Numbered from the stretch's first letter, positions 3,340-23,237 are shown. The stretch: DNA of 24,000 nt from Pontiella sulfatireligans (GCF_900890705.1 NZ_CAAHFH010000002.1:2155458-2179457); one strand, 5' to 3'. Made by a program: numbers and translations. Notes: generated by a model not told the origin, from the sequence alone.

Positions 3340-3354
3340 GGGGGGGGGGGGGGG
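3340..3354. repeat. Homopolymeric G15 tract (C15 on the coding strand of the flanking genes)
   Basis: Counted directly: G runs from 3340 to 3354. The tract is intergenic and lies 12 nt downstream of the permease stop codon (TAG, 3367-3369). Confidence 0.95.
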
Positions 3355-3366
3355 CTCTCTCAAGAG

Positions 3367-4710: not shown

Positions 4711-4720
4711 TCGGGTTTCC

Positions 4721-6423: not shown

Positions 6424-6803
6424 TGGCTTAGGGTTTGTTTTTCCGGAGGGTTGTAGAAGTGTGCGATGGCCAGCTTGATGGTATCGGCGGCGAGCAGGGC
6501 GCAGTGCTGATGGTCTTCCGGAATGGGGCCGGAGGCTTCGAGCACCTGGGCCTGGGTCATGGCCTCCGCCTCCTCGGGGCGCATGCCTTCGGCCAACTCA
6601 ATCGCTTTGTTGCAGCAGTGTTTGGAATAGCCGCAACCGTCGGTCATGAACGAGCCCTTGCGGATTTTGCCGCCATCGATGCGCAACCAGATTTCGGCGG
6701 TGTCATTGCATGCGCCACGCACCTTCGCGTAGGCGTTGGCATCCCGCATGGGGCCGAACCGCTTTGCACGCGATTCGATGGCCTTCATTGCATCGTTGAA
6801 CAT
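6396..6803 (-). CDS. IscU/NifU N-terminal-domain-like Fe-S scaffold protein
   Basis: Three conserved Cys contexts align to IscU: GACNDT, DGCGYS and HCALLAADTIKLAI. I trimmed the 196-aa track ORF to the Met at 6803, because its Arg-rich N-terminal 61 aa overlap the upstream gene. The alternative ATG at 6788 makes an ATGA overlap with the upstream stop. Confidence 0.8.
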   Translation of the reverse strand: MFNDAMKAIESRAKRFGPMRDANAYAKVRGACNDTAEIWLRIDGGKIRKGSFMTDGCGYSKHCCNKAIELAEGMRPEEAEAMTQAQVLEASGPIPEDHQHCALLAADTIKLAIAHFYNPPEKQTLSQWLKRILKK

Positions 6804-7642: not shown

Positions 7643-7715
7643 ACTGATGCTCCAGTACCACATGGTTTTGAACAGAAGGACGCAAAGCCCGCAAAGGACT
7701 GCTGGTTAAAATGAA

Positions 7716-8597: not shown

Positions 8598-9460
8598 TGT
8601 TCAGTTCCTTTATGTTCGCGCACGACCCAGCCGCCGACCGGCTCACCGAGGTCTCTTCCAATCACTGGACATTTAACCTGTGTCAGGAAAAAGAGCGGGC
8701 GCTTGGCTTGGCTGAGGCTTTCGTAGTTGGCCTGCCCTTTAGCGATCACGAGTCCCGCTTCGTTGAAGAGCCAGCGGAAGGGGGCGTTGCAGTCCTCCAA
8801 AATGGTGCCCGGAGCATCGCTGCCGTTTTCTGTCAGTTCGGCTACTTCATGCAGCCCGGCGGCGCGGGCGTCGGCCAGCGTGGCGTCGTTGATGACCGGC
8901 GAGCCCTTTACGGCGTAAAAAACATCCGTATTGGGGAATTGCTCAATCAGCAGGCGGTCGAAGACGGTTTCGCCGGCGTTGTCGCCCAGAAACAGAATCG
9001 ATCCGGCCCGCCGCACCGCTTTGCGGAGCTGCTCCACGGCCGCATCGTTGAGCGGTTGGACGCGGGTGTTTTCGATAAAGTTGGCGAGGTCCAGCTGAGT
9101 CCATTTGGTGGTTAGGGCAAAATCGAGGATGTTTCCGGCAATCGAAAAGCGGAGCGCCATTTTAAACGGATCGATCGATCCGTTAATGATGGCCCGGGCT
9201 TCATCCATTATGCGAAGGGCGAATTCGGTTGAACGACGTTTTATTTTTTCGTAAGGATCCGCGCGACCGGTTTCCTCTCGGATGATCCGGTGCGTGATCT
9301 GTGCCATTTCGGGCGGCGTGCGCGTGGTGGGAAACCGGGCCGCCTCCTGCAGAACGCGTTGCAGCGTTCGGTGCGTCAGCGCTTCATCGCTGTCCACCTG
9401 CTGCAACGCGTCGTAGGCCTGCTGAATAAAACAGGGAATGCATTGATTATATATCTGCAT
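8594..9460 (-). CDS. DUF89 / ARMT1-like (damage-control phosphatase family) protein
   Basis: The 288-aa ORF has the N-terminal CIPC motif (MQIYNQCIPCFIQQ), GDNAGETVFD and AKGQANYESL, all typical of DUF89. Confidence 0.8.
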   Translation of the reverse strand: MQIYNQCIPCFIQQAYDALQQVDSDEALTHRTLQRVLQEAARFPTTRTPPEMAQITHRIIREETGRADPYEKIKRRSTEFALRIMDEARAIINGSIDPFKMALRFSIAGNILDFALTTKWTQLDLANFIENTRVQPLNDAAVEQLRKAVRRAGSILFLGDNAGETVFDRLLIEQFPNTDVFYAVKGSPVINDATLADARAAGLHEVAELTENGSDAPGTILEDCNAPFRWLFNEAGLVIAKGQANYESLSQAKRPLFFLTQVKCPVIGRDLGEPVGGWVVREHKGTEQ

Positions 9461-9461
9461 G

Positions 9462-9827
9462 CTAGGCCCAGTGCCCTTCCACGTTGGCTTCTTCTGATTT
9501 GGTCAGTTGGCCTTGCTTCAACATTTCAATGGCTTCGCTGACGGAGGCGTCGGCGATGCAGGTGTAGACCTTGATGCCGGCGGCATCGAGGGTGGCGTAG
9601 GCCTTGGGGCCGCAGTTTCCGGTGATGACGCAGTCGACCATTTCTTCCTTGATGTGGATGGCCGACTGAATGCCGGCGCCCTGCGCCGCATTAAGGTTCT
9701 GCGAATTTTCCTTCATGTAGAATACGCCGGTTTCGGTGTGGTAGATCAGGAATTGGGGCGCACGGCCGAACCGGCTGTCGACTTTTGATTCGAGGTTGGT
9801 TCCCGCGGTGGTAATTGCTATTTTCAT
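9462..9827 (-). CDS. NifX/NifB-fold small protein, paralogue 2
   Basis: The 121-aa ORF reads MKIAITTAG...VDSRFGRAPQFLIY...VITGNCGPKAYATLDAAGIKVY. An AGGAT RBS is present. Confidence 0.85.
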   Translation of the reverse strand: MKIAITTAGTNLESKVDSRFGRAPQFLIYHTETGVFYMKENSQNLNAAQGAGIQSAIHIKEEMVDCVITGNCGPKAYATLDAAGIKVYTCIADASVSEAIEMLKQGQLTKSEEANVEGHWA

Positions 9828-9836
9828 GGGTTGATC

Positions 9837-10058
9837 CTAATTTGTTAGTTGTTCTGGATTTCGCTTAAATGGACGAGTTGCTTTTGGAGCGACGTGAGCT
9901 GCGTTTGCAGGGCATCGATCTTTCCTTGCAACACGATGGTGTCGGCCGCTGCAACAGCATGCTGCGAGTGGCTGCGGAAGAATCCACGCGCGGATTCCCG
10001 TGCCGCGTCCTGTCATTGGTTCGGCCCGGGTTGGTTCCGTTCCGTTTTGTTGCGGCAT
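9837..10058 (-). CDS. DUF5320-like small protein, apparently frameshifted (the family-like C-terminus is in the +1 frame and ends at 9845)
   Basis: A strong RBS (AAAGGAGG) lies 6 nt before the ATG at 10058. The N-terminus MPQQNGTEPTRAEPMTGRGTG matches the DUF5320 signature MPxxDGTGPxGxGPMTGRGxG. The rest of frame 0 is low-plausibility sequence. The +1 frame instead encodes RGFFRSHSQHAVAAADTIVLQGKIDALQTQLTSLQKQLVHLSEIQNN*, the expected coiled-coil tail. Confidence 0.6.
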   Translation of the reverse strand: MPQQNGTEPTRAEPMTGRGTGIRAWILPQPLAACCCSGRHHRVARKDRCPANAAHVAPKATRPFKRNPEQLTN

Positions 10059-10077
10059 GATATGCCTCCTTTAAATG

Positions 10078-10437
10078 TTAATGGCAACGGCCCTGACGCC
10101 GCTGGCATCGGCGGCACCCCGGCATGGAAAAGCCAGGCTGGTCGAGCTGGTTGGATTTGAATGCTTCCAGCACATCGTGGATTTCGCCGGACACGAAGGC
10201 CTGCACCTGTATCCCGTGCGCTTCCGCCTGCTGTATTAACGGCCGGGAAATGGCACCGCAGATGAGGACATCGACCTGATGGTCTTCAAGAAAGGCAATA
10301 CGGCTTTGCGGACTGTCGGCAGGGCCGCCTAAGTTCGATGTGTTCATTCCGCCATCCGCATCCATCAGAACCACGGTTCCGGCAACGTCGAACAACGGGG
10401 CAACCCGTCCTTGCCACTCTGTAACAGCAACTTTCAT
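10078..10437 (-). CDS. NifX/NifB-fold small protein, paralogue 1, with a Cys/Arg-rich C-terminal tail
   Basis: The 119-aa ORF reads MKVAVTEWQGRVAPLFDVAGTVVLMD...VLICGAISRPLIQQAEAHGIQV. Its tail is SMPGCRRCQRRQGRCH. Confidence 0.8.
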   Translation of the reverse strand: MKVAVTEWQGRVAPLFDVAGTVVLMDADGGMNTSNLGGPADSPQSRIAFLEDHQVDVLICGAISRPLIQQAEAHGIQVQAFVSGEIHDVLEAFKSNQLDQPGFSMPGCRRCQRRQGRCH

Positions 10438-10448
10438 TGCCTGCTTTA

Positions 10449-10465
10449 ATGCACTAGGTGTGCCA
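10449..10465 (-). promoter_or_regulatory. Sigma54 (-24/-12) promoter candidate for the NifX/MinD-Fdx gene train
   Basis: The minus strand reads TGGCAC-ACCTA-GTGCAT, with exact GG-N10-GC spacing. It has the same -12 variant (GTGC) as the promoter at 20676. It sits directly downstream of a sigma54 activator gene. Caveat: the predicted transcription start (~10438-10439) lies only 1-2 nt before the ATG at 10437. Confidence 0.5.
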
Positions 10466-10554
10466 ACGTATGAGCAGGGAAGGAGGGGCTTTTCAACCTG
10501 TACCCGTTAAACGATTAAGAAAAGAGGCGGTTAGGTTTCGACAAAACGAATAGA

Positions 10555-10566
10555 TGCATAAATGCA
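10555..10566. promoter_or_regulatory. Inverted repeat TGCAT-NN-ATGCA: candidate enhancer (UAS) for the 10449 promoter, or alternatively a weak second -24/-12 element
   Basis: The plus strand has TGCAT AA ATGCA at 10555-10566, centred about 120 bp upstream of the predicted transcription start. The same stretch on the minus strand reads TGGTTG-CATTT-ATGCAT (10554-10570), which also has GG-N10-GC spacing but a poor -24 match. Confidence 0.3.
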
Positions 10567-10600
10567 ACCACCAGGCGGCCGAAAGGTAGCGAAACTGCAC

Positions 10601-11944
10601 CTATTGATCTTTGGACGGGTGAAGGCCGAGGGCCTTCATTTTGCGATAGAGCGTGGTTTTATGAATGTTGAGGTCGCGAGCAGTGGCGAGGCGGTTAAAC
10701 CCGTTTTTTTCGAGGGCGGCCAGAATGGTCTGCGATTCGGCGGAGCGCCGTGCAGTTTCCATGTCGGTTGAACCTTCGGACTGAATGGAGCGGCCGCGGA
10801 GTTCGGCGGGAAGATGTTTGATCTCAATCTGCGGGTCGGTGCAGAGCACAAAGGCGCGTTCAATAATGTTTTCGAGCTCGCGGACGTTGCCGGGCCAGTC
10901 GTGCGCCATCAGCAGGGAGCGGGCCCCGTTGGATATGCCGGCAATCGCCTTGCTGTGGATGCGGTTGAAACGCCGGATAAAATGTTCAATCAGCAGCGAC
11001 AGGTCGTCTTTGCGCTGGCGAAGCGGGGGGAGCTCGATGTTGATCACGTTTATGCGATAGAAGAGGTCTTCCCGGAAGGAGCCCTCTTTCACGCGCGCTG
11101 GCAGGTCGCGGTGGGTGGCTGCAATAATCCGGGCTTTGGTGTGTACGGTGGTATTGCTGCCGAGCGGTTCGTAGGTGTGTTCCTGCAGGACGCGCAGCAG
11201 GCGGACCTGAAGTGCAGGGCTGATCTCGCCGATTTCATCGAGGAAAACCGTTCCGTCGGCCGCCTGTGCAAACCGGCCGGGCTTGTCTTGGATGGCCCCG
11301 GTGAAGGCACCCTTTTTATAGCCGAAAAGTTCGGATTCGAGCAGGGTGTCGGGCAGGGCGGCGCAGTTGATGGCGATGAAGGGCTTGACCGCGCGCGTGC
11401 TCATGCCGTGTATGGCGCGGGCGAGCAGTTCTTTTCCGGTTCCGGTTTCGCCTTGAATCAGCAGGGTGATGTCGCTGGCGGCCACGGACGAGGCGAGCTC
11501 GAAGACGGGCTGCATGGCGTGGCTGTGGCTGACCATATCGCCGAGCGAGTAGCGGCCGGAGATTTCTTTGCGGAGTGTTTCGAGTTCGCTGAGATCGCGG
11601 AAGGTTTCGGCGCCGCCGATGACCTTTCCATCTTCGTCGTGCAGCACGGCGGTGGAGACGCTGGCAGGGACGCGCTCGCCGTCGGCGTTGATGATATAAC
11701 AGGCGTGGGCAATGATCGGCTTGCCGGTGGAGAGCGTTTTGCCGAGTGCGCAGGCGCCTTCGCACATGCTGGAGCGGAAGACCTCGGAGCAGCGGCGGCC
11801 GATGGCTTCGTCGCGTGGGACGCCCGTGATCTTTTCGGCGGCGCGGTTGAAGGAGGTGATACACCAGTCGGTGCCGACCGTGAACACGCCGTCGGATATG
11901 CTTTCGAGGATTGCCTCGGTTGTTGCTATGGAATCGGTTCCCAT
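10601..11944 (-). CDS. Sigma54-dependent transcriptional activator (PAS sensor + AAA+ sigma54-interaction domain + Fis-type HTH)
   Basis: The 447-aa ORF has a PAS domain (ILESISDGVFTVGTDWCITSFNRAAEKITG), Walker A (GETGTGKE), the GAFTGA loop (KKGAFTGA), Walker B (GTVFLDEIGE), ELENIIERA, and a C-terminal HTH (ATARDLNIHKTTLYRKMKALG). Confidence 0.92.
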   Translation of the reverse strand: MGTDSIATTEAILESISDGVFTVGTDWCITSFNRAAEKITGVPRDEAIGRRCSEVFRSSMCEGACALGKTLSTGKPIIAHACYIINADGERVPASVSTAVLHDEDGKVIGGAETFRDLSELETLRKEISGRYSLGDMVSHSHAMQPVFELASSVAASDITLLIQGETGTGKELLARAIHGMSTRAVKPFIAINCAALPDTLLESELFGYKKGAFTGAIQDKPGRFAQAADGTVFLDEIGEISPALQVRLLRVLQEHTYEPLGSNTTVHTKARIIAATHRDLPARVKEGSFREDLFYRINVINIELPPLRQRKDDLSLLIEHFIRRFNRIHSKAIAGISNGARSLLMAHDWPGNVRELENIIERAFVLCTDPQIEIKHLPAELRGRSIQSEGSTDMETARRSAESQTILAALEKNGFNRLATARDLNIHKTTLYRKMKALGLHPSKDQ

Positions 11945-12011: not shown

Positions 12012-12803
12012 TTAGCGGTTGAACAGACGTTTAGCCGACAACAGGCCGATGCCGAATAGTGCAACCAGAGTGAGCACGGCCGGTTCCGGCACCGCTTCAA
12101 TCTTGTCGATTGAATAGTCCATGTTCTTGTTTTCGGAGCAGATGTGTAGCGAGAACGCTTCCACCTTCGTCATATCGATCGATGCACCCAAAGCCGAAAA
12201 ATCGATTTCGAATGCCGCGGCGCGACCAGCAGCCAGCGCGTTGTAGTTTTCATCCATCCAGGCGTTGGCGGCATCATCCATATTGGCTTGGTACAGATTC
12301 TTTTCGCCCTCGATTTTGACCGATAGAAGGACATCGTTGAAAAAATTAGTGGAAGGATCCATTCCGCCTGCACTGGCAAACGTGATGCTGAAGCGGTCGT
12401 TGCCGCCGCCGTCGGTAAAGTCGAGGACCGGACTGATCGTGCCGTTGCCGAAGGGATCGGTGTCCAGATTGCTTCCCCATCCGGCGGTTCCGTCATAAGC
12501 TAAATAGATACTGGGGCTGGCTTTTTTGTTGGTGTAAACCTCGAGTTTTCCATTGGCGAACTTGGCGGTGGTGGTGCCGCCGGAACTTGATGACTCGCAG
12601 CCTACACTTCCGTCGCGAATGCCGCCGATGACGGAGGAAGTGGTATCCTCCCACGCAGTTTGATTCCCTTGGCTCGTCGTAGTTTGGTTGGCAGGATCGC
12701 TGAAATCATCGATCAGAAAGGCATTGGCCGAAACCATTGGAGCGGTCGCAAGCAACAGACCACAAATCGGAAAAACTAGGAAAGATGGTGAATATCGTCT
12801 CAT
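12012..12803 (-). CDS. Secreted PEP-CTERM sorting-domain protein (putative exosortase substrate)
   Basis: The 263-aa ORF has an N-terminal signal peptide (LLLATAPMVSANA) and a Ser/Thr/Gly/Asn-rich body. Its C-terminus, VPEPAVLTLVALFGIGLLSAKRLFNR, shows a PEP motif, a TM helix and a basic tail. Confidence 0.8.
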   Translation of the reverse strand: MRRYSPSFLVFPICGLLLATAPMVSANAFLIDDFSDPANQTTTSQGNQTAWEDTTSSVIGGIRDGSVGCESSSSGGTTTAKFANGKLEVYTNKKASPSIYLAYDGTAGWGSNLDTDPFGNGTISPVLDFTDGGGNDRFSITFASAGGMDPSTNFFNDVLLSVKIEGEKNLYQANMDDAANAWMDENYNALAAGRAAAFEIDFSALGASIDMTKVEAFSLHICSENKNMDYSIDKIEAVPEPAVLTLVALFGIGLLSAKRLFNR

Positions 12804-12939
12804 ATTGAAGGGCTCTCTATATTTATAATGAGTATCTATATCTCAGGGTTGCGGTCAAGTTTTGAATCAAGGCATACGGAGCCAGAAAGAGATCGGGCAA
12901 TGTAAGCAGCAAGGTTGGTTCTAAGGATTCGTTGTTGGT

Positions 12940-13902
12940 TCAGACCTGAGCGATTTCGAGGCCGAGGGTGCGGATCATTTCGAGGTCGGTTTCGTATTGG
13001 GAGCCGGCGATGGTGAGATAGTTGCCGGTCATGAGGCCGTTGGCGCCGGCAGAGAAGAGGTCGGCCTGGCGTTCGCCCAGCACGTGGGTGCGTCCGCCGC
13101 AGATGCGCAGGGTGGTGCCGGGCAGCAGGAAGCGGTAGACCGCGATGATGCGCAGGGCTTCTTCGGCGGCAAGTGGAGGCGTATCCTTCATCGGGGTGCC
13201 TGCGTGGGCATAGAGAAAGTTGATCGGCACGCTGTTGACGCCGAGGCCGCGCAGGGTGAGCGCGAGCTCGATGCGGTCGTCCCAGCTTTCGCCGAGGCCG
13301 AAGAGGCCTCCGCAACAGACGGCGAGGCCGGTGGCCATGGCGGCCTTGACGGTGTCGAGGCGCTGTGACCATTGCTGAGTGGAGCAGACTTCGGGATAAT
13401 AGTTTTCGGAGGTTTCGAGGTTGTGGTGGAAGCGGGTGAGGCCGGCGTCTTTGAGGTTGGCAAGCTCGTCTTCTGTGAGGCGGCCGAGCGAGGCGCAGAC
13501 GGGGCCGGGTTTTCCGTTGGAAACGCTGCGGACGGTGTCAGCCAGCACGTTGAGCTCGTCGCCGGAAAGCTTGCCGCCGCTGGTGACGACGCCGCAGTGG
13601 CGGTCGTTGCCGGAAATGGTTTCTTCAATGCGCCGCTTGAGCTCCCCTTTTTTCATGAAGGGGTAGGCTTCGATTTCGGTGGAGTTGTGCCCGCTTTGGG
13701 AGCAGAAGCGGCAATCCATGTCGCATTGGCCGCTTTTGGCGTTAATGATGGAGCAAAGTTGGATTTGTCTGCCGAAGTGGGCTTCGCGCACCTGCGTTGC
13801 CGCGGTGAAGAGTTCGATTTCGCTGCAGTTGATGAGCGAGCGGGCTTCTTCGGGCGTGCAGCCGTTGCCGGCGAGCGCATTTTTTATGATGGTTTCGAGC
13901 AT
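12940..13902 (-). CDS. bioB: Biotin synthase (radical SAM)
   Basis: The 320-aa ORF has the radical-SAM CxxxCxxC motif (CDMDCRFC), FHHNLETS, and a BioB-like C-terminal half (SVPINFL...GANGLMTGNYLT). Confidence 0.9.
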   Translation of the reverse strand: MLETIIKNALAGNGCTPEEARSLINCSEIELFTAATQVREAHFGRQIQLCSIINAKSGQCDMDCRFCSQSGHNSTEIEAYPFMKKGELKRRIEETISGNDRHCGVVTSGGKLSGDELNVLADTVRSVSNGKPGPVCASLGRLTEDELANLKDAGLTRFHHNLETSENYYPEVCSTQQWSQRLDTVKAAMATGLAVCCGGLFGLGESWDDRIELALTLRGLGVNSVPINFLYAHAGTPMKDTPPLAAEEALRIIAVYRFLLPGTTLRICGGRTHVLGERQADLFSAGANGLMTGNYLTIAGSQYETDLEMIRTLGLEIAQV

Positions 13903-14465: not shown

Positions 14466-14522
14466 ATTATGAGCCTCCGTTTACTGAGGAACATCATATG
14501 CAGAATCATGCGTTTGGCAAGG

Positions 14523-14729
14523 TTAGGATTGCTTGCGCATCGCTTCGATTCCGAGCTTGTCCATGCGGTAGCGCAGGATGCGCCGGGTGGTGCCGAGCCG
14601 TTTCGCGGCGCGCGTTTGAATGCCTTCGCATTTTTCCAGCGCATGGACAATCAGCGTCCGCTCGAACTCGGCGACGGCATTTTCGAGGCAGTGCGGCGTT
14701 TCCGGCTCTATGACGATGAGCTGCCTCAT
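14523..14729 (-). CDS. Stand-alone Fis-type HTH (HTH_8) DNA-binding protein, 68 aa
   Basis: AVAEFERTLIVHALEKCEGIQTRAAKRLGTTRRILRYRMDKLGI aligns to the C-terminal DNA-binding domain of NtrC-type activators and of Fis. Its ATG makes an ATGA overlap with the stop of the upstream kinase gene (14726-14729). Confidence 0.7.
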   Translation of the reverse strand: MRQLIVIEPETPHCLENAVAEFERTLIVHALEKCEGIQTRAAKRLGTTRRILRYRMDKLGIEAMRKQS

Positions 14730-16720
14730 TCCGAGGCCTTCTTCAGCGCCGGAAGCGTCAGGGAAATACTAGTGCCGCCGTCACTGGTTTCGATCTCCAT
14801 TTTCCCGTTGTGGTCGATGACTGCACGCTTGGCGATGGGCAGGCCGAGGCCGAAACCGCGCGCCTTGGTGGTGATGAAGGGGGAGAACACCTTGTCGCGC
14901 ACCGAAGCATCGATGCCTCCGCCGTTGTCTGCCACGATGATGTAGAGGTTTGCGTTGCCGTTTTGCGGATCGCGGCTCTTGACGGTGACGTTGACGCGTG
15001 AGCCTGCCCGGTTGTTCAGGTTTTCAACCGAATTGCGGAGCAGGTGGTAGACGCATTCTTCGAGCGAAGCCGCATCGCCGTTGATTTGCAGTGCGGATTC
15101 ATCGGAGGAGAGATGGATCTTGAGGTTTTCGTGACCGAACGAGTCTTGGATCCGGGTGACGGCATGTTCGATGGGCTTGCGGATATCCAGGGGTTGGAAG
15201 ACAGGAGCCGGCGGGTTGGCGAACTCGTTGATCTTGTCGATGATGTGGTTGAGCTGATCGACCTCGGTGGTAACCTGCTCGCTGAATTCGGATCGGAAGT
15301 CGGGATCTTCGTAACGCGTGGGCAACAATTGGGAGAAGGTTTTGATGGCGACGAGCGGGTTTCGGATTTCGTGGCTCATGCTGGCGGCGAGTTCGTTCCA
15401 GAAGGCGGCGCGTTCGAGTTGCTCTTCTTTTTCCTGGAGCAGGGCCGCTCCAGTTACATCCCGAAGCATCATCATGGCACCAACGCATTCCCCGTCCGAC
15501 ATGAGGCAACGGGTTTCGGCCGAGAGGGTCAGCTTCGTGGCCGGGTCGGTCCATTCGCGGGTGTCGTAGCCTTCCTGTTTCCCGATGGCACGGCGGAGCA
15601 TGTCGGCAATGCGGCTTCCGAGCACTTCGATTTGACTGCCGATCACAGATTTTTCTTCGGTTTGGAGGGTCTCGCGGGCGGCGTTGTTGAACCAGCGTAC
15701 AATGGCGCTCTCATCGCAGGCAATGATGCCGAACGGGATGGAGTGGAGCAGGGTCTCCGCCAGCGCTTTCTGCAGGGCGGTTTTTTCGTATTGAAGTGCT
15801 TTTTCGAGGGTGGTGGAAATATGGTCGGCGAGTCCGGTGAGATCCTCAAGGTCGGCGATGTCGAAAGGAATTCCGGTGGAGCGCTGGCCGACAAAGATCC
15901 AGCCCTTAATGCGGCCGTTGGCATAGAGCGGAATAATGATTTCTGCGCCGAGCGAGTCGAGCATGTGTTTGAGCATGCCCCGCTCTTGGGGGTCGGATAC
16001 GTTTTCGAGTGTTTTTCTGGAAATCAAGTGGGTGTTCATTTCCACCCACCGGATAAATGGATCGCCGGAGCTGATGGAAAGCTTTTCGGTGGCTGCAAGG
16101 CAGCGGGTTCCTGCTTGGAAGAGGTATGCTTCCTCGGCGTCGGGCTTGATGAAAATGCCGGCGCGGGAAACTCGGGCAGTGGCGACGAGCCCCTCGACGA
16201 CGCTGTCGAAGAGTTTCTCGATGTTGTCGAAGTTGCGTTGGGCGCTTGAAAAGTTTTGCAGTGGGGCGGAGAACAAGGTTCGCGGGGCCGGGGCCGGGGC
16301 CGCCTTGCGGGCGTTCAGCGTGGCTAGCTCTTCTTCGAGCAGGCGGTTTTTCTGCCGCAGCTTCAGGCATTCCACGGCTTTTGAAAGCAGTGCTAGAAAT
16401 TCGCGCCGTTCTGGCTCGAAGTTGGTTGTGGCATATGGATCGAGCCATTCGGCGGTGAGCATGGGGTCGGACCGTTCGGCACCTATGGCAATGATGACGG
16501 TCATGGGCCGTTCGGTTCGGATGGAGGCTAGCAGCTCAAGACAGTTGGGGGCGCGGAGGTCGGCCAGCAAGACGGTATCGCCAAACTGGGAAATCCACTG
16601 TTCCAAGTCGGCCTGTTCGTCGATGGGCTGCAGGGCGGCCACGGAGGAGGAGATGCGGATGAGCCGCCCGATGAGCTCTTCGTCGCGACTGTAAAGAATG
16701 CAGGACGGCATGGTCTTCAT
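14726..16720 (-). CDS. Soluble sensor histidine kinase (receiver-like N-terminus, GAF, PAS, HisKA, HATPase_c)
   Basis: The 664-aa ORF has no TM segments. Its H-box is SMSHEIRNPLVAIKTFSQLL, its N-box is LLRNSVENL, and its G-boxes are DNGGGI and GFGLGLPIAK. The N-terminal ~120 aa resemble a receiver domain (TVLLADLRAP) but lack the acidic DD pair. It makes an ATGA overlap with the upstream gene (16717-16720). Confidence 0.85.
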   Translation of the reverse strand: MKTMPSCILYSRDEELIGRLIRISSSVAALQPIDEQADLEQWISQFGDTVLLADLRAPNCLELLASIRTERPMTVIIAIGAERSDPMLTAEWLDPYATTNFEPERREFLALLSKAVECLKLRQKNRLLEEELATLNARKAAPAPAPRTLFSAPLQNFSSAQRNFDNIEKLFDSVVEGLVATARVSRAGIFIKPDAEEAYLFQAGTRCLAATEKLSISSGDPFIRWVEMNTHLISRKTLENVSDPQERGMLKHMLDSLGAEIIIPLYANGRIKGWIFVGQRSTGIPFDIADLEDLTGLADHISTTLEKALQYEKTALQKALAETLLHSIPFGIIACDESAIVRWFNNAARETLQTEEKSVIGSQIEVLGSRIADMLRRAIGKQEGYDTREWTDPATKLTLSAETRCLMSDGECVGAMMMLRDVTGAALLQEKEEQLERAAFWNELAASMSHEIRNPLVAIKTFSQLLPTRYEDPDFRSEFSEQVTTEVDQLNHIIDKINEFANPPAPVFQPLDIRKPIEHAVTRIQDSFGHENLKIHLSSDESALQINGDAASLEECVYHLLRNSVENLNNRAGSRVNVTVKSRDPQNGNANLYIIVADNGGGIDASVRDKVFSPFITTKARGFGLGLPIAKRAVIDHNGKMEIETSDGGTSISLTLPALKKASE

Positions 16721-19257
16721 GCGATTGCTCCTCCTTCTTCAAGCAGGGGAATGTAGATGTAGAAAGTGGAGCCTTTTTCCGGCTCGCTCTCTACTTCGAT
16801 TACACCGTGGTGCTCCCGAATGATGCCATGGGAGACCGACAGCCCCATGCCGGTTCCGTCGCTCTTGCTGGTAAAGAAGGGATCGAATATTTTTTGCAGG
16901 CTTTCTTGCGCAATTCCTGCTCCGGTGTCGCTGACCTGCAGGCGGATGCAGTTTTTAGCGATGGGGTTCCCCGGTTTGGCCCCTGTGGCAAAAAGGTGCA
17001 TGCAGTTGATGCTTCCGACGGTGATGTGCCCGCCGTCATCGATGGCTTCAATGGCGTTCAGAACGAGGTTGACCAATGCCTGGGAGAGCAGTCTGGCATC
17101 GCCAAGAATGGCAGCCTTTCCGGCGCGGCAGGTGTTTTTTAGCGCAATGTTTTTTTGCGACAGCTGCTCGGACATCAACTTCAGTGTTTGTTCAACAGTT
17201 TCATGCAGATTCATGGGAATGAGGTGTGGCTTGGCCGGTTTTGAAAAGCTGAGCAGTTCGTTTACGATGCTGTCGATACGCTCAACCTCATGCGCGACCA
17301 ACGATGCAAAATCTTCCCTGAAGTCTTCGTCCGCATAGCGCTTGGGAAGCAGCTGGGTGAAGGTTTTAATCGTGACCAACGGGTTTTTTATTTCGTGCGC
17401 CATGCCGGCGGCCAAGGTGCCGACGCTCGAAAGCTGGTCGGAGCGGCGGACCTGCTCTTCCAGGCTCTTAAGCTCGGTCATGTCGGTGAACACCAGCAGG
17501 GCGCCCACCGGCTTGCTGTCATGTCCGAACAGGAACGCCGACCCCATCCGTATGCTGGCACTCTCCTCCTCGCTGTCCTGCGTAAATAAAGTGGCATCTA
17601 CATTGCGGACGCCGACCTGCTTTTCCAGCGTAGCGTCCAAGGCGTGGATGATCGGCCTCGGAAGAACGTCGATGCTCTCGCCGATGGCGCCATGTTCGTC
17701 GATGTCGGTGATGCGTTGCGCTTCGTGGTTGAACAAGGCGATTTTTCGCTCCGGACTTGCAACGATTACGCCGCTCACCAGCTGGTCGAGCATAATCTCG
17801 TTGCGGATCTTGCTGTCCTGCATTTCGGTGTAAAGACGCGCGTTTTCAAGCGCAACCGCAAGCTGGTTGCACAAAATCTGCAGGGCGTCCTGTTCGGTTT
17901 TATCGTAGATCCGACCGTCATTTTTTGCCCCCAAAAGCACTATGCCACTCAGATCGCCCTTGGAGAAAACACCTGTTGCAACGCTGATGTCATATTCTAG
18001 CATAATCTGAAGAGAGGCCACCGACTGTGGTGTTTCTCTGACCCGGATCAAACTATCGCGAGAAACGGGTTCTTTTGACGTTTTTATAAGTTTGATCAAG
18101 GGCGTTTCCTGCATCAATTCCATTGTTTCATAGTGTGATCCAAGCTCGTAAGAGAGACGGAAGTTTTTTCCCGTTGCGGATAGCATTCTTACATGCTCTG
18201 CCCCAAGTGCTTTGATTAGCAAGACAGAAAATTGGCTGCAAAGGGCGTCTAGAGTCGTCACGGACTGGAATATGTCGCCAGCCATTTTTATGGTTCCAGG
18301 AATATCTATTAGTTTGGAGGGTATAAGCTTGTCGGCAACTTTTTGCAACCGTCCGTGAACAGGAGCCATGGAAAATGCCACGACCAATGTGGCAACGACG
18401 TGGGCAGGGAGCAAAGATGAAATTGAAAGCCGTTCAGAAATGAAGAAAAGCGCAAACCACACGCATAAATATAAAACAACAAGATATAGGCAGAGTAGGG
18501 TGTAGGCAAAAATTCGCCTGATAATCGTGAGAATACCAAGTATCCGCTGTGTTGCTATGCCATAGCCGATCGTTGAAACCAGCGTGATTATGCTCAATGC
18601 GTTGGAGAATGGAACGAACTGTGACGTGCCGGCAATCAATGGGATGGACAGGCTGAGTGTAGTTCCAACCGAGAGGGCCACAGTTGCGCCAAGAACCACG
18701 AATGCCAATTCAGATTTTTGCGAACCTCGGAGCTGCTGGAGGTCTCGCTTAAACGCAACAATCAATCCTATGCCTGAGAAAAGAAAATAGATGGCATACA
18801 AGGCAAGGCCATTGCCATATTCAGGCTCCACATGTGCACCATTAAATGCAACATCGGCTACTTTCATTGTTGCTGATTTCAGGAAAAAACTTGTGAAACA
18901 GAAAATAGTCGTGATGAGGTTGATTAATAAAAAACCACTCCCCTTTTGCATTACGGCAAGGAAAGACATGTTTTGGTATTTAATGGATAATCTTAAAAGA
19001 TGACAAGATGTTGGTATAAGGGCGGCAAAGACGGATGCAAAACGAATTGCGGTTGCGGCATGTTCGGAGGAAGGGGCTTGCAAAGCATACCATCCTGAAA
19101 GCTGCCAAAGGGCAACCCCCGCAGTGAAGAGCAGGAACTGCTGGTTTACTACGCGTTTCCTATTTGTGAAATAGACAATGAGCCCGAGTATGCTATCGAC
19201 AAATAGTGTTCCAAGAATAGCTATTTCAGCAGCACCCATGTTAGCTGGCACTCCCAA
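16717..19257 (-). CDS. Membrane sensor histidine kinase (polytopic N-terminal domain, GAF, PAS, HisKA, HATPase_c)
   Basis: In the 846-aa ORF, the first ~300 aa are a run of about 8-9 hydrophobic helices. A GAF-like region follows (...IVLLGAKNDGRIYDKTEQDALQILCNQLAVALENARLY), then a PAS domain. The H-box is GMAHEIKNPLVTIKTFTQLL, the N-box is LVLNAIEAI, and the G-boxes are DTGAGI and GTGMGLSVS. The alternative start at 19239 would remove the 17-nt overlap with the ketosynthase gene. Confidence 0.85.
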   Translation of the reverse strand: MGVPANMGAAEIAILGTLFVDSILGLIVYFTNRKRVVNQQFLLFTAGVALWQLSGWYALQAPSSEHAATAIRFASVFAALIPTSCHLLRLSIKYQNMSFLAVMQKGSGFLLINLITTIFCFTSFFLKSATMKVADVAFNGAHVEPEYGNGLALYAIYFLFSGIGLIVAFKRDLQQLRGSQKSELAFVVLGATVALSVGTTLSLSIPLIAGTSQFVPFSNALSIITLVSTIGYGIATQRILGILTIIRRIFAYTLLCLYLVVLYLCVWFALFFISERLSISSLLPAHVVATLVVAFSMAPVHGRLQKVADKLIPSKLIDIPGTIKMAGDIFQSVTTLDALCSQFSVLLIKALGAEHVRMLSATGKNFRLSYELGSHYETMELMQETPLIKLIKTSKEPVSRDSLIRVRETPQSVASLQIMLEYDISVATGVFSKGDLSGIVLLGAKNDGRIYDKTEQDALQILCNQLAVALENARLYTEMQDSKIRNEIMLDQLVSGVIVASPERKIALFNHEAQRITDIDEHGAIGESIDVLPRPIIHALDATLEKQVGVRNVDATLFTQDSEEESASIRMGSAFLFGHDSKPVGALLVFTDMTELKSLEEQVRRSDQLSSVGTLAAGMAHEIKNPLVTIKTFTQLLPKRYADEDFREDFASLVAHEVERIDSIVNELLSFSKPAKPHLIPMNLHETVEQTLKLMSEQLSQKNIALKNTCRAGKAAILGDARLLSQALVNLVLNAIEAIDDGGHITVGSINCMHLFATGAKPGNPIAKNCIRLQVSDTGAGIAQESLQKIFDPFFTSKSDGTGMGLSVSHGIIREHHGVIEVESEPEKGSTFYIYIPLLEEGGAIA

Positions 19258-20479
19258 TTATCAAGGAGCTATTCATTGCTCCGCTGCCATGGGAGTTAAT
19301 CAGGACTTTGTCAACGCATAGGTGCCGAGGCGAGTCCGGTACATAGTCGAGCAAGCAGTCTGGATCTGGAAATTTATGGTTTGCAGTCGGGGGAATGCAA
19401 TTTGCTTTCATTGACAGGGAGCACGCAATTGTCTGGTGTGCCCCTCCGGCGGCCAACGGATTGCCCGTTACCCCTTTTATGGATGTGACCGGAATGCGAT
19501 AGGCATGATCGCCAAAACAATCCGTGATCAGAATAGATTCTGAGACGTCAAGTATCTGGTCGCTTGGCCCATGTGCAAAGATGGCATCAATCTCGCGGGG
19601 CATTAAGCTGGAGTTTGCCAGAGCTTTTCTCATGCTCATTTTTAAGCCGTTTCCAGAGATTCCCACGTTTAGATCGCGAGATGTCCCGTAGCCTAGCACT
19701 TCTGCATATGGGGCCTTGTTTCGACTCATTGCATGGTCTAATGATTCTAGCACAACAATGCCGCTTCCCTCTGCGAGCACTCCGCCGTCGCGACTAATAT
19801 CGAACGGTCTGCTGGCCAGTTTCGGGTTATCATTATTTGTGCTAACCATGCCAGCAGCACAAAATCCGGCCATGGCTGATGGAACAATAGGAGCTTCAGT
19901 GGCTCCGCAAATGCAGATGTCAGCTTTGCCCTCTCTAATTATTTGAGCGCCCCTAGCGATGGAATCCAGTCCTCCCACGCAACTGTTGGAAATAGTGCAA
20001 AGTTCTGTTTCTACATTTAAAATAGCTCCAATGAGGCTGGCTGCCGCTAAGTGAATGCAGCCTTCGACCGCATGAGGAACCAGCTTATTAGGGCCTAGTT
20101 TGGAAACGCGCAGGATTTGGTTTTCGATGTGATCAAAGCCACCCAAGCTTATTCCTATAATAATGGGAAGAGGTTCTGCGCGACGAAGATCTTCAGGATT
20201 CAGCCCCGAATCCTCTACTGCAAGGAGGGCCGCTTTGGCTCCAAGTTGTACGTTTCGGCTGAGCCGTCGCGCCTTAACGCGCCCATTCATAAAGTTCTCG
20301 GGCACAAAATTGGAAACTTCACCCGCTATCCGTGACTTAAAATCTGTTGTCTCGAACTGGGTGATCGGCCCGATGCCGGATTCGCCGGCGAGAAGGGTGC
20401 GCCAGAAGGCGTCTTTGCCGATGCCGTTTGCCGCCAGCACGCCCAGCCCTGTTATGACGACTCGATTTCTTCCGATCAC
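19241..20479 (-). CDS. FabF-like beta-ketoacyl-ACP synthase (KAS I/II fold) with an atypical Cys-His-Asn triad
   Basis: The 412-aa ORF starts at a GTG. It is collinear with E. coli FabF as recalled from memory: ISNSCVGG holds the active-site Cys167, NDNPKLASRPFDISRDGGVLAEGSG is conserved, FAHGPS holds His303, and SIKGVTGNPLAAGG has Asn340 where FabF has His340. Confidence 0.85.
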   Translation of the reverse strand: MIGRNRVVITGLGVLAANGIGKDAFWRTLLAGESGIGPITQFETTDFKSRIAGEVSNFVPENFMNGRVKARRLSRNVQLGAKAALLAVEDSGLNPEDLRRAEPLPIIIGISLGGFDHIENQILRVSKLGPNKLVPHAVEGCIHLAAASLIGAILNVETELCTISNSCVGGLDSIARGAQIIREGKADICICGATEAPIVPSAMAGFCAAGMVSTNNDNPKLASRPFDISRDGGVLAEGSGIVVLESLDHAMSRNKAPYAEVLGYGTSRDLNVGISGNGLKMSMRKALANSSLMPREIDAIFAHGPSDQILDVSESILITDCFGDHAYRIPVTSIKGVTGNPLAAGGAHQTIACSLSMKANCIPPTANHKFPDPDCLLDYVPDSPRHLCVDKVLINSHGSGAMNSSLIIGSAS

Positions 20480-20577
20480 TCTTTCTATTCCCCCGTACCG
20501 CAGGCTTGGGCATCGGCTTTAATCCCGGCCATCAAGGCCAAAACATTAAATGGTGATAAAGCGTCCCATGTATGCCT

Positions 20578-20591
20578 GTACAATTTTGTAC
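20578..20591. promoter_or_regulatory. Inverted repeat GTACAA-TT-TTGTAC: candidate enhancer (UAS) for the sigma54 promoter at 20676
   Basis: It has perfect 6-bp arms with a 2-bp spacer and is centred about 117 bp upstream of the predicted transcription start (~20702). It also reads TGT-N10-ACg, close to the NifA-type TGT-N10-ACA pattern. Confidence 0.3.
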
Positions 20592-20593
20592 GC

Positions 20594-20622
20594 ATTAAAT
20601 ATCAACATATTGTATATATCAA
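20594..20622 (-). promoter_or_regulatory. Sigma70-type promoter candidate for the ketosynthase/kinase operon
   Basis: The minus strand has TTGATA (20622-20617), a 17-nt spacer and TTTAAT (20599-20594), each one mismatch from consensus. The AT-rich context makes chance matches likely. Confidence 0.25.
20600..20612 (+). promoter_or_regulatory. IHF-consensus site between the palindrome and the -24/-12 promoter
   Basis: TATCAACATATTG matches WATCAANNNNTTR at every defined position. A second near-match, TATCAAGAATTAA, lies at 20617-20629. The surrounding DNA is AT-rich, so a chance match is possible. Confidence 0.35.
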
Positions 20623-20637
20623 GAATTAATACACAAC

Positions 20638-20673
20638 CTGTAGTGATAAACTGCAGTGATAAACCAAGTGACA
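20638..20673 (+). repeat. Tandem 13-bp direct repeats CTGYAGTGATAAAC (x2 plus a partial third) abutting the -24 element
   Basis: The two full copies are ctgtAGTGATAAAC (20638-20651) and ctgcAGTGATAAAC (20651-20664). A partial AGTGACA follows at 20667-20673. A related GGTGATAAAG lies at 20562-20571. Confidence 0.6.
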
Positions 20674-20675
20674 TT

Positions 20676-20691
20676 TGGCACGGATGGTGCT
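20676..20691 (+). promoter_or_regulatory. Sigma54 (-24/-12) promoter upstream of the FadL-family gene
   Basis: TGGCACG-GATG-GTGCT has exact GG-N10-GC spacing and differs from the TGGCACG-N4-TTGCW consensus at one position. The predicted transcription start is ~20702, giving a 33-nt leader that contains an AAGGGA RBS before the ATG at 20735. Confidence 0.65.
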
Positions 20692-20734
20692 AGTAGTAGG
20701 CAATTCGATTTTAATGCAGAAAGGGAATAATACT

Positions 20735-22036
20735 ATGAAGCATCTAGTTAAGCAGTTTGGAAGTGGGGTGGCGGTTTTTGCTATGCTGGGGATTTGGGCT
20801 GAGAGTGCGTATGCGGATGGATACCGCAATCCTCCGCCTACGGCCGAAGGGATTGGCCGGTCTGGTGCAAACATGATCTTTGTAGACGATGCATCGGCGG
20901 TTTTCTACAATCCGGCCAATCTGGCGATGCAGGAAGAATCCTCTATTGTGGTCGATGCCACGCTGGCCCGCGTCAAGAACAAGTTTAAGTCGGATTCTTC
21001 TGGAACCAAGACGGCGAAGTCGGATGCCGACTGGCAGCTGCTGCCGAACGTGTTCTTTTCCATGCCTGCCGGCGACACGGGCGTGGTTTTGGGGATGGGA
21101 ATTGGTACGCCGTACGGGCAAGGCATCGATTACAATAAGAAAGATTTAGTGAATATGCCGGCTTTTTCAGGAGCCTTTGGCGAGCCTGAACCCCCGGCCA
21201 TCTACAGCGCCGAAGTTGGCTTAATCAACTTTAACCCGACCATCGCCTTTAAGGTGCACGAACGCGTTGCCATCGGCGTGGGAGCGGACATTTACTACTC
21301 CAAGCTTGAATTTAAGCAGTACTATCCTTGGGGCGAGATTGCTCCGATTTTTGAAAGCGGCAACGTCAAGGCTGACGGTGACGGATTCGGATACGGCGGC
21401 AACGCCGCGGTTACGTGGAACATGACCGACCGCCAGCGTATGGCGTTTTCCTACCGCAGCGAGGTCAAGGTCAAGTATGAGGGCGATTTTAAGATCAACA
21501 CCGTCGGTCCCCCCAACCCCGCAACCGGGGAGCCCGCCTTTAGTTCGAAGCGTAGCGATTTCGACATGGACATCAAATATCCGACCACGCTCGGCCTCGG
21601 ATACGGCATTCAGGTGACCGACGCAATTAACGTTGAAGCCAACCTGGAATGGCTGGGCTGGTCGGTCAACAAAACGCTGGAAGCCGATCTCGGGTCGAAC
21701 GGGTCGATGAAGGTTCCCCAGAAGTGGGACGATACAATAACCTTTTCTATCGGAAGTGATTGGCAGTTTTCCGAGCACTTCACCTTCCGTACGGGCTATG
21801 CCTATATTGAAACGCCTATCCCGGAGAAAACCGTTGCTCCAAGCCTTCCGGATGCCGACCGCCACGTACTTAGCGTGGGACTGGGCTGGACTGCGGGCGG
21901 GCATACGCTCGATGTGGCTTATTCCTTCAGTTTCTACGACGATCTGAATGTTGACAACAATCAGGTCGATTCATTTAACGGTGATTATGACATTGATTCT
22001 AATCTGGTAGGTCTGACATATTCCTATACGTTTTAA
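20735..22036 (+). CDS. FadL/TodX-family outer-membrane transporter for long-chain fatty acids or hydrophobic compounds
   Basis: I trimmed the track ORF (TTG at 20675) to the ATG at 20735, which has an AAGGGA RBS and does not overlap the promoter. The signal peptide is MKHLVKQFGSGVAVFAMLGIWAESAYA. The mature N-terminus DGYRNPPPTAEGIGRSGA and the NPA motif (FYNPANLA) are typical of the family. The protein has beta-barrel character throughout and ends in a terminal Phe (YSYTF). Confidence 0.85.
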   Translation: MKHLVKQFGSGVAVFAMLGIWAESAYADGYRNPPPTAEGIGRSGANMIFVDDASAVFYNPANLAMQEESSIVVDATLARVKNKFKSDSSGTKTAKSDADWQLLPNVFFSMPAGDTGVVLGMGIGTPYGQGIDYNKKDLVNMPAFSGAFGEPEPPAIYSAEVGLINFNPTIAFKVHERVAIGVGADIYYSKLEFKQYYPWGEIAPIFESGNVKADGDGFGYGGNAAVTWNMTDRQRMAFSYRSEVKVKYEGDFKINTVGPPNPATGEPAFSSKRSDFDMDIKYPTTLGLGYGIQVTDAINVEANLEWLGWSVNKTLEADLGSNGSMKVPQKWDDTITFSIGSDWQFSEHFTFRTGYAYIETPIPEKTVAPSLPDADRHVLSVGLGWTAGGHTLDVAYSFSFYDDLNVDNNQVDSFNGDYDIDSNLVGLTYSYTF

Positions 22037-22052
22037 TTATTGGAGAAACAGA

Positions 22053-23237
22053 GTGGAAGCCGAGCAGCTGCAAGGGAAGGTTCTAGTTATCGATGACGAG
22101 CGCGGTCCGCGTGAAAGCTTGCGGATGGTGCTGAAGTATGATTACGAAATTTTTCTCGCTGACCGCGTCGATGCGGGCATTGAGCTTTTGCGCAGCGAGC
22201 AGCCGGATCTTGTGATCATGGATATCCGCATGCCGGAGAAAAGCGGCATCGAAGGCCTGCAGGAAATCCGCGACATCGACCCTAGCGTTTCGATCGTCAT
22301 GCTCACCGGCTACGGTGACCTTGAAACGGCGCAGGCCGCCATCCGCTTCGGCGCGAACGACTATCTGCAAAAGCCCTTCGATACCGACGATATTCAGGCG
22401 GTCGTGAAGAAGTACGTCGAGCGCTCCCAACTCAAGCACCGCAAGCACCAAGCCCAGGAGGAGCTGCAGAAGATGACGCAGTCGCTGGGGCGCGAAGTCG
22501 GCAAAACCAACAAGTTGACTTCGCTCGGGGCGGCTTCGTCCGAATTGGTTCGCGATTTGCGCAACCCGCTCACCATTATTCGTGGCTATTTGGATTTGCT
22601 CAACTATGAGTTGAAGGAAAAGCAGGAATCCACTTCGGATGAAATGAATGAATACCTCGACCAGATTGAAAGCAACGTTGGACGGTGCGCTGAACTGGTT
22701 GAATCTTGGCGCGCCCTTGGCCGTTTCGACTTTTCCCAGTTGCAGCGGCTCAATATCCCCAAACTCTCGAACGACTGTTTTCGGGATGCAGCAACCCACA
22801 CCGACATATCGTTTTCCGTTCAGCTCGAAGGCATTGAAGAGCAGTATGAAATGCTCGGCGAACGGTTGCAGATCAAGCGGGCGTTGCAAAACCTCATCGA
22901 CAACGCGGTCGAAGCGGTTGAGCATCAGCCTAACCCTCAGATCACCGTCTTGCTTTCTATGGACGGCGGCGACCTCGAAATCAAGGTGAAGGACAATGGA
23001 TGCGGGGTTGACACCAAGCGTCTGCGGTGGATTTTCGAGCCGTTCGACAACACGGCAACCATTGAAAAAGGTGCCGGATTAGGGCTGTTCATCACCAAGA
23101 AAGTGATTGAAGAGCACCGTGGCTCGTTGCAGTTTGAGAGCCGGATCAGCGAGGGCACAATGGTTACCGTCCGACTCCCGCAGGCCCAAACGGCGCTGGG
23201 CTATTTTTCCAGTCCAGAATCCCTGATTCCTGCCTGA
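22053..23237 (+). CDS. Response-regulator receiver fused to a histidine-kinase-like DHp + HATPase_c module that lacks the phospho-acceptor His
   Basis: The ORF starts at a GTG with a GGAGA RBS. The receiver domain is intact (DD14-15, D57 in VIMDIRMP, T85, K107). The H-box position reads SSELVRDLRNPL, with Arg167 where HE(I/L)RNPL has His. The N-box (LQNLIDNAVEAV) and G-boxes (DNGCGV, GAGLGLFITK) are intact. Confidence 0.85.
   Translation: MEAEQLQGKVLVIDDERGPRESLRMVLKYDYEIFLADRVDAGIELLRSEQPDLVIMDIRMPEKSGIEGLQEIRDIDPSVSIVMLTGYGDLETAQAAIRFGANDYLQKPFDTDDIQAVVKKYVERSQLKHRKHQAQEELQKMTQSLGREVGKTNKLTSLGAASSELVRDLRNPLTIIRGYLDLLNYELKEKQESTSDEMNEYLDQIESNVGRCAELVESWRALGRFDFSQLQRLNIPKLSNDCFRDAATHTDISFSVQLEGIEEQYEMLGERLQIKRALQNLIDNAVEAVEHQPNPQITVLLSMDGGDLEIKVKDNGCGVDTKRLRWIFEPFDNTATIEKGAGLGLFITKKVIEEHRGSLQFESRISEGTMVTVRLPQAQTALGYFSSPESLIPA

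Follow-up and report, generated by a model that had tools for sequence, protein, structure and literature searches.

The 24,000-nucleotide stretch of the Pontiella sulfatireligans genome analysed here (NZ_CAAHFH010000002.1:2155458-2179457, hereafter the window; genome G000 in our samples) carries an operon of four genes, coding for a FabF-fold ketosynthase-like protein (KS), a membrane-bound and a soluble sensor histidine kinase, and a 68-residue protein made of a stand-alone Fis-type helix-turn-helix (HTH, Pfam HTH_8). This operon faces a divergent one, headed by a FadL/TodX-family channel gene and preceded by a sigma-54 type element (TGGCACGGATGGTGCT). As established by comparison with relatives, the 68-residue gene (hereafter the stump) is what survives of an NtrC-type response regulator that belonged to this operon, and the explanation that best accounts for the locus as a whole is that this conserved DNA-binding remnant of a sigma-54 activator probably still binds a palindrome (TGTACAATTTTGTACG) located between the two operons, as a local modulator.

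The origin of the stump was traced by comparing the gene that overlaps the stop codon of the soluble kinase across 20 loci carrying a KS orthologue, taken from a sample of the phylum Kiritimatiellota. This gene codes for a full receiver (REC)-Sigma54_activat-HTH_8 protein of 452-538 residues in seven loci (G149, G140, G200, G110, G080, G032 and G107), for a REC-HTH_8 protein of 192-199 residues in four loci of a single clade (genus g2: G038, G089, G017 and G092), and for HTH_8 only (68-70 residues) in G000 and in P. agarivorans (G104); seven genomes have no following regulator gene, and some Pontiellaceae hold no remnant of the locus regulator at all. In the full proteins, the AAA+ domain carries GAFTGA and is matched by Sigma54_activat at 224-231 bits. 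The initial annotation had considered a degenerate activator architecture, and this is borne out by the full REC-AAA+-HTH_8 gene standing at exactly the same position in relatives. It had also described the last gene as no more than the Fis-type HTH that normally ends NtrC-type regulators, which holds: Pfam detects PF02954, and neither an AAA+ sigma-54 interaction domain nor a receiver, and the C-termini of the full activators share 56-65% identity with the stump. Among the hallmarks of bacterial enhancer-binding proteins, the stump thus has the C-terminal HTH_8 and lacks the AAA+ domain with its GAFTGA loop. The stump begins with MRQLIVI (a close homologue has MKHLVVI), similar to the MKxLLIVDD with which the receiver opens, as expected if sequence inside the gene was deleted in frame while the coupled start codon was preserved. 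In a tree of the three shared proteins, full regulators occur on three deep branches, all REC-HTH loci group in one clade, and the HTH-only ones are nested in the Pontiella clade. In Pontiellaceae, an internal deletion spared only the start-codon region, a short linker and the Fis-type DNA-binding domain with its three helices; in the g2 clade, one left REC-HTH_8.

RegA, PrrA and ActR are response regulators of the REC-HTH_8 type, and the g2 intermediate shares their architecture of a receiver followed by a Fis-type HTH, whereas the G000 stump has no receiver. AtoC/NtrC models nevertheless give the g2 proteins their best scores, over two separate segments, and these proteins look like recent AAA+ deletions rather than members of the RegA family. 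No full-length orthologue of the locus regulator was found elsewhere in five genomes of the genus. The closest REC-type activator of G000 (C2:2748932-2750356, 40-42% identity), considered as a relocated orthologue, was rejected as a distinct paralogue, since it has its own orthologues, at 62-67% identity, in genomes that also keep the locus regulator.

The conservation of the stump points to a protein under selection. A search for short homologues returned 75 clusters at E <= 0.001, 67 of which, 60-82 residues in length, were aligned. In these homologues (at least 67 distinct ones, of about 70 residues), coming from P. desulfatans, P. agarivorans, strain S94, several Pontiellaceae isolates and many metagenomes, the recognition helix LGTTRRILRYRMDKLGI is invariant, the preceding helix keeps the pattern L-E-x-x-V-G-x-F-E-R-x-L-I-x-x-A-L, and the termini vary freely. 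Public records call several of these stumps of about 70 residues (P0019, P0028, P0032 and others) "two-component system response regulator AtoC" or "transcriptional regulator with GAF, ATPase, and Fis domain". The arrangement of P. sulfatireligans, with a 4-nt overlap between the gene and the kinase stop codon and a Usp gene behind it, recurs in P. desulfatans, strain S94 and a metagenome contig. Among the eight genes for which DNA was available, the pairwise ratio of nonsynonymous to synonymous substitution rates (dN/dS) has a median of 0.20 and a maximum of 0.33, for a dS of about 1.2.

Such figures bear on the possibility that the 68-codon open reading frame (ORF) is a dead fragment of the deleted activator gene, open by chance and functionless. 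The absence of both receiver and ATPase, and the fact that at least three Pontiellaceae lineages, along with several other Kiritimatiellia, have lost the gene outright, would suit a fragment of this kind, but a dN/dS of about 0.2 at saturated dS, the constant length and invariant recognition helix of so many diverged homologues, the preserved ATGA coupling, and the fate of the palindrome, intact where the gene is kept and decayed where it is lost, make this very improbable.

The structural model agrees with a DNA-binding domain. The AlphaFold (AF2) model of the stump, built on a 35-row alignment, reaches a predicted local distance difference test (pLDDT) score of 84.7 and consists of 11 unstructured residues followed by three helices (residues 12-33, 38-45 and 49-59). 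Its nearest folds are helices B-D of Fis and the DNA-binding domains of NtrC4, NtrC1, ZraR and NtrC. Against Fis (1ETY and 3IV5), Foldseek gives a probability of 1.00, a template modelling (TM) score of about 0.67 and a root-mean-square deviation of 0.9-1.1 Å, with E-values that are weak, the protein being short. The best sequence match in the Protein Data Bank is 2M8G, a sigma-54 activator DNA-binding domain (E=1.2e-6).

The partner site of the stump was found by pattern search: TGTACA-N4-TGTACA has a single match in the window, which places it about 117 bp before the predicted sigma-54 start on one side and about 98 bp before the KS start codon on the other. An inverted-repeat finder run on two intergenic regions returned nothing at its seed settings. 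With up to one mismatch, the 7.4-Mb genome holds four matches, of which only the local one has the conserved AT-rich spacer. Where a locus has a full or REC-HTH regulator, 2-5 copies resembling this palindrome occur in its intergenic regions, against 0.1-0.45 in shuffled sequences, and HTH-only loci retain at least one strong copy. When both locus samples are combined, at least one site with three mismatches or fewer occurs in 22 of 23 loci with an HTH regulator versus two of 42 without, and both of the latter are poor matches. The same association holds within the family: the site is intact, with 0-1 mismatch, in all six HTH-positive Pontiellaceae (G000, P. agarivorans, P. desulfatans, S94, L067 and L079), and decayed to 5-6 mismatches or unrecognisable in all six HTH-negative ones (G071, G137, G131, L066, L071 and L073), in whose genomes no copy of the HTH gene was found elsewhere. 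As the HTH-negative Pontiellaceae fall in at least three separate places in the soluble-kinase tree, gene and site have been lost together repeatedly. The block of IHF-like sites next to the palindrome is nearly invariant among seven Pontiellaceae intergenic regions, HTH-negative ones included. This co-variation of gene and site, which is comparative in nature, is the main evidence for binding, and the stump most likely still recognizes the single palindrome next door.

The closest precedent for the stump is, by analogy, the proposed origin of Fis from the C-terminal domain of NtrC (Morett and Bork 1998, FEBS Lett 433:108; known here through the reference list of PMC11407668). Both are small free-standing HTH_8 proteins, derived from an NtrC-type activator in the case of the stump and proposed to be so in the case of Fis, and the stump model has the three-helix B-C-D core of Fis, on which 48 residues superimpose to within about 1 Å and are 35% identical. 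Unlike Fis, the stump has neither the N-terminal beta-hairpin arm nor helix A, its N-terminus being variable in the 67 homologues, and the curated Fis models NF001659 and NF002517 give 24.2 and 23.7 bits, far below their cut-offs of 99 and 122. It also stays in its parental two-component operon, with apparently one target, and arose by in situ internal deletion with extant intermediates, not by horizontal transfer of a fragment. The resemblance in fold and size, and the derivation proposed for Fis itself, could suggest that the stump now acts as a general nucleoid protein of the Fis kind, with many targets across the genome. This is scarcely credible, given the handful of near-matching palindromes in the genome and the conserved spacer of the local one alone, a gene that never leaves its operon and is lost together with one local site, and the missing arm and helix A. 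The same three-helix fold is found in the DNA-binding domains of sigma-54 activators (Aquifex NtrC4 2M8G, 3E7L and 4FTH, NtrC1 4L5E, ZraR 1OJL and NtrC 1NTC), but those are laboratory fragments, in contrast to the stump, a natural gene product under selection.

The history of the sigma-54 element is distinct from that of the stump. The genome has one copy of rpoN, and an element equivalent to TGGCACGGATGGTGCT is present in relatives with and without the locus activator. Among full-regulator loci, six of seven have a sigma-54 element scoring at least 9/11, and the seventh has TGGCAT-N5-ATGCC. No GG-N10-GC element reaching this score was found in the four REC-HTH loci, consistent with these loci having abandoned sigma-54 once the AAA+ domain was gone. 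The HTH-negative Pontiellaceae keep a consensus-grade element (for example TGGCACACAAATTGCT in L066), and only G131 let it decay; since the element survives where both HTH gene and palindrome are lost, the HTH protein is not needed for the sigma-54 promoter of the FadL operon. Loss of the AAA+ domain thus goes along with disappearance of the element in one clade, and in Pontiellaceae the element has outlived its own activator.

Which protein fires this promoter was approached by scanning the 7.40-Mb assembly, from which roughly 5% of the genome is missing, with PF00158 and in six frames for GAFTGA/ESELFG. Eight sigma-54 activators were recovered, each with its own HTH, and all three REC-type ones adjoin their own kinases; these scans, which the initial annotation had recommended, revealed no AAA+ activator lacking an HTH. 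An HTH-less AAA+ partner and an orphan REC-type activator driving the promoter were both rejected on these grounds. The same data bear on the split activator first suggested for this locus, in which the HTH protein would tether a separate AAA+ module, the receiver encoded at 22053 or the pseudo-receiver of the soluble kinase, or several of these, to the enhancer. Natural activators without a DNA-binding domain exist, such as FlgR of Helicobacter pylori and CtcC of Chlamydia, and the palindrome does lie at a textbook enhancer distance (about -117) from a strong sigma-54 element, with IHF-like sites between them. With no orphan ATPase in the genome, however, the idea is unsupported, and it appears highly unlikely given that Pontiellaceae devoid of HTH gene and palindrome keep both the IHF block and the element, as in L066.

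The other option of the initial annotation, an activator encoded elsewhere, is the only one that remains for this promoter, which must now be fired in trans. A conventional NtrC-type regulator immediately outside the window, which could have explained the promoter, is not there, the nearest other one being about 25 kb away. The statement that the locus lacks an AAA+ domain stands for the operon, but 2.6 kb downstream, on the same strand, the neighbouring orp cluster has a PAS-AAA+-HTH_8 activator (10601-11944), unlinked in other Pontiellaceae. This nearest activator might have taken over the FadL promoter, making the stump irrelevant to it, and P. desulfatans shares the arrangement. Such a takeover is unlikely, as strain S94, P. 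agarivorans and the metagenome contig keep the sigma-54 element with no orp cluster next to the operon, and the palindrome of the orp promoter (TGCATTTATGCA) has no counterpart in 20480-20735; on this different palindrome and the lack of linkage, the orp regulator was rejected as activator of the FadL promoter.

In strain S94, P. agarivorans and the metagenome contig, the KS-kinase-HTH-Usp block precedes MoxR/BatA genes, and BioB and the orp cluster (12012-13902 and 750-11944 in the window) stand between Usp and MoxR/BatA in G000 and P. desulfatans only among the genomes compared, so that this block is an insertion relative to the other Pontiellaceae. The P. desulfatans orp regulator (L062 10932-12268, GCA_900890425.1) appears in the NCBI record as two genes, of 407 residues and of 38 residues with HTH_8, and as one 446-residue gene in a Logan contig of the same sequence; a frameshift or an error of assembly probably explains the split, which would then not be a second case of a natural HTH stump. 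In strain S94 (CP036201.1, L064 1861-3071), the FadL-family gene is recorded as two overlapping pieces of 219 and 211 residues, and may be frameshifted or broken.

Taken together, the stump would still be made, through translational coupling to the kinase gene, and would dimerise through its long first helix to bind the palindrome, an old enhancer between the divergent KS and FadL operons. Remodelling of the sigma-54 holoenzyme requires an ATPase in this family, so that the stump is not an activator of the sigma-54 promoter. NtrC-type proteins autoregulate at overlapping sigma-70 promoters, and the stump may either autoregulate the KS-kinase operon, or occupy the enhancer position before the FadL promoter and damp access to it, or both. 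Because the gene has been lost at least three times, this role would be dispensable. Such local modulation is the weakest step of the proposal and is advanced tentatively; the origin of the stump and its site are far firmer.

Several points weigh against this interpretation. The HTH gene has, as said, been lost repeatedly in Pontiellaceae. No sigma-70 promoter was found for the KS operon by consensus scan, a scan that the promoter type of the host may not fit, and the direction in which the stump would regulate is a guess. A 68-residue protein with a single dimerisation helix may lack sufficiently tight dimer binding. As to its history, the full activator may be ancestral only in the part of the tree formed by Kiritimatiellia and Lentisphaerota, as the related gene module of Chthoniobacterales (see below) has no linked regulator at all.

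The layout of the locus is given in Table 1. The initial annotation had described four translationally coupled genes, and the four minus-strand ORFs, their domains and near-zero spacing, and the ATGA overlaps at 16717-16720 and 14726-14729 are all present; relatives likewise have same-strand genes whose stop and start codons overlap or abut, with 4-nt overlaps in P. desulfatans. The 17-nt overlap proposed between the KS and membrane-kinase genes (19241-19257) fares less well, as it rests on a TTG start at 19257. Orthologues of the kinase align from residue 6-7, and an ATG at 19239, one base past the KS stop and preceded by GGGAG, makes an abutting stop-N1-ATG junction more likely; this ATG is probably the true start, and the junction is tightly coupled under either start. 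At the other end, the sigma-70-like match fits the consensus at 10 of 12 positions and directly follows the HTH stop, so that the operon probably ends with the HTH gene.

Table 1. Features of the Pontiella sulfatireligans locus, in window coordinates
Feature	Position	Strand	Basis or remark
FabF-fold ketosynthase-like (KS) gene, first of operon	19241-20479	-	Pfam ketoacyl-synt N and C domains
Polytopic (about seven transmembrane segments, 7TM) sensor histidine kinase	16717-19257	-	Pfam HisKA, HATPase_c, weak HisKA_7TM match
Soluble kinase: degenerate receiver-like N-terminus, GAF, PAS, HisKA, HATPase_c	14726-16720	-	Pfam
68-residue stand-alone Fis-type HTH (HTH_8)	14523-14729	-	Pfam PF02954, E=2.4e-13, 50 bits vs cut-off 22
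Putative HTH-protein site (former enhancer), palindrome TGTACAATTTTGTACG	20577-20592	no strand	Pattern search
Two IHF-like sites, TATCAACATATTG and TATCAAGAATTAA, between palindrome and promoter	20600-20629	+	Read in sequence
Sigma-54 type -24/-12 element TGGCACGGATGGTGCT, before FadL-family gene	20676-20691	+	
FadL/TodX-family outer-membrane channel, first gene of divergent operon	20736-22036	+	Pfam Toluene_X, E=5.9e-61
Receiver fused to kinase core, Arg at phospho-His position (VRDLRNPL)	22053-23237	+	Pfam Response_reg, HisKA, HATPase_c
VAO/PCMH-type flavoprotein, 539 residues	23245-24000	+	FAD_binding_4; runs past window end to about 24864
Sigma-70-like promoter match TTGCCA-16-TATGAT, after HTH stop and before Usp gene	14493-14520	-	Pattern match only

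Both kinases have HisKA and HATPase_c domains above cut-offs, and the claim that their H-boxes are typical of partners of NtrC-type regulators is upheld, as both are of the AtoS/ZraS/NtrB kind: they score best against AtoS, ZraS, PnpS and NtrB models, though no family cut-off is reached. The H-box AHEIKNPL of the membrane kinase is invariant in 21 orthologues, and SHEIRNPL of the soluble kinase is conserved, its phospho-acceptor His being likewise invariant in 21 orthologues. The membrane kinase, initially described as a 7-9 TM GAF-PAS kinase, does show at least six strong hydrophobic segments in its hydropathy profile, but no GAF or PAS match was obtained with Pfam at E<0.01, and these domains are suggested by its similarity to the soluble kinase. 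With the cognate output regulator lost, both kinases could signal, within the locus, only to the receiver of the REC-(pseudo)kinase encoded at 22053. The phospho-His of this hybrid (codon at 22551-22553) is Arg in G000 and His in all orthologues outside Pontiellaceae. Within the family (loci L042-L079), Arg occurs in all six HTH-positive members and in two of five HTH-negative ones, the other three having His, a weak correlation (Fisher p of about 0.06) among related genomes.

The locus resembles AtoS/AtoC, ZraS/ZraR and NtrB/NtrC in its kinases and in that its relatives combine an NtrC-type regulator, tandem enhancer palindromes and a -24/-12 promoter. It differs from them in having two kinases, a REC-kinase hybrid and a ketosynthase-like first gene, and in the reduction of the G000 regulator to its DNA-binding domain. 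Known comparison systems also include TodS/TodT with TodX, TodT being of the NarL type, and the alkylphenol pathways under sigma-54 control. As with TodS/TodT-TodX, a FadL/TodX channel is found beside multi-kinase sensing and a flavoprotein of the p-cresol methylhydroxylase (PCMH)/vanillyl-alcohol oxidase (VAO) type, but the locus has no catabolic pathway genes and an NtrC-type remnant instead of the NarL-type TodT.

The KS protein is a paralogue separate from housekeeping FabF, of which the genome has its own match. It scores 354 bits against the fabF equivalog model TIGR03150 (cut-off 493.75), and its catalytic triad is Cys-His-Asn (TGNPLAAGG) instead of the Cys-His-His of FabF (compared with B. 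subtilis FabF, 4LS5). Copies at 41-73% identity are carried by 22 genomes of the phylum sample, FabF proper being at about 40% or less. Among 21 orthologues, G000 included, the Cys-His-Asn triad is found in G000 and 16 others; three (G038, G089 and G092) have Cys-Asn-His, as though the missing His had swapped place, and G026 has Cys-His-Cys.

A gene order unique to this genome, which the initial annotation had named as counting against its interpretation, is not what is seen: the order KS, 7TM kinase, soluble kinase is kept in all 20 Kiritimatiellota loci, with the HTH gene following also in P. desulfatans, S94 and the metagenome contig. The receiver-kinase hybrid is divergent from KS in relatives, with a FadL-family gene between them in nearly all Kiritimatiellota loci. 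Beyond the phylum, the KS-kinases order recurs in Chthoniobacterales and Lentisphaerota. A profile scan of species-representative genomes confirmed 568 relatives of the soluble kinase, and the best-scoring 80 of these, examined as loci, belong to Pontiella, to other Kiritimatiellia, to Lentisphaerota/Victivallales and in many cases to Chthoniobacterales, and align at 40-78% identity along nearly the full length. The Chthoniobacterales core consists of a REC-kinase divergent from KS, 7TM kinase and soluble kinase, with neither FadL nor a linked regulator. About 20 of these loci (L090-L144), which have no linked activator, show a conserved sigma-54-like CGGCACG-N4-CTAGCT before the REC-kinase gene, and the same sequence is present in G048. 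Given this spread, the association of KS with the kinases is ancient and general in the Planctomycetes-Verrucomicrobia-Chlamydiae (PVC) group, and not a quirk of P. sulfatireligans.

The genes behind TGGCACGGATGGTGCT, coding for the FadL/TodX channel, the receiver-kinase hybrid and the PCMH/VAO-type flavoprotein, bear on what the module may sense. The nearest solved structures of the flavoprotein are p-cresol methylhydroxylase and vanillyl-alcohol/eugenol oxidases (E of about 1e-52 to 1e-39). In some Kiritimatiellia, an O-methyltransferase gene (Methyltransf_2 and dimerisation domain) lies between FadL and KS, or after the soluble kinase (L049 7663-8745 and L052, from G149 and G200; L051 6946-8037), which hints at a phenolic substrate. 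A hydrophobic ligand, possibly a phenolic lipid, is a reasonable guess from the channel, the flavoprotein and the O-methyltransferase of some relatives.

Literature searches on activator domain loss and on Pontiella regulation returned nothing on this locus. What appears new is a natural, selected, operon-resident DNA-binding stump with all its intermediates and its co-evolving site visible: one orthologous regulator can be followed from REC-AAA+-HTH to REC-HTH, to HTH alone and to nothing, with its DNA site and promoter type alongside. For annotation, small HTH genes following kinases can be functional stumps, and the AtoC and ATPase names given to them in public records are wrong, neither receiver nor ATPase being present. 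The module of ketosynthase and kinases has been kept in Kiritimatiellota, Lentisphaerota and Chthoniobacterales. A more speculative and, as a whole, doubtful proposal would be twofold: in Pontiellaceae, an NtrC-type activator may have given rise to a Fis-like protein a second time, independently and in a way that can still be traced, with a role at an orphaned enhancer and a sigma-54 promoter captured by a non-cognate activator, and the PVC-wide core may be an undescribed signalling system in which the kinases respond to an acyl or phenolic-lipid ligand that the ketosynthase-like enzyme produces or detects. The stump offers a testable analogue of the Fis-from-NtrC hypothesis and shows that selection can preserve the bare DNA-binding domain of an activator.

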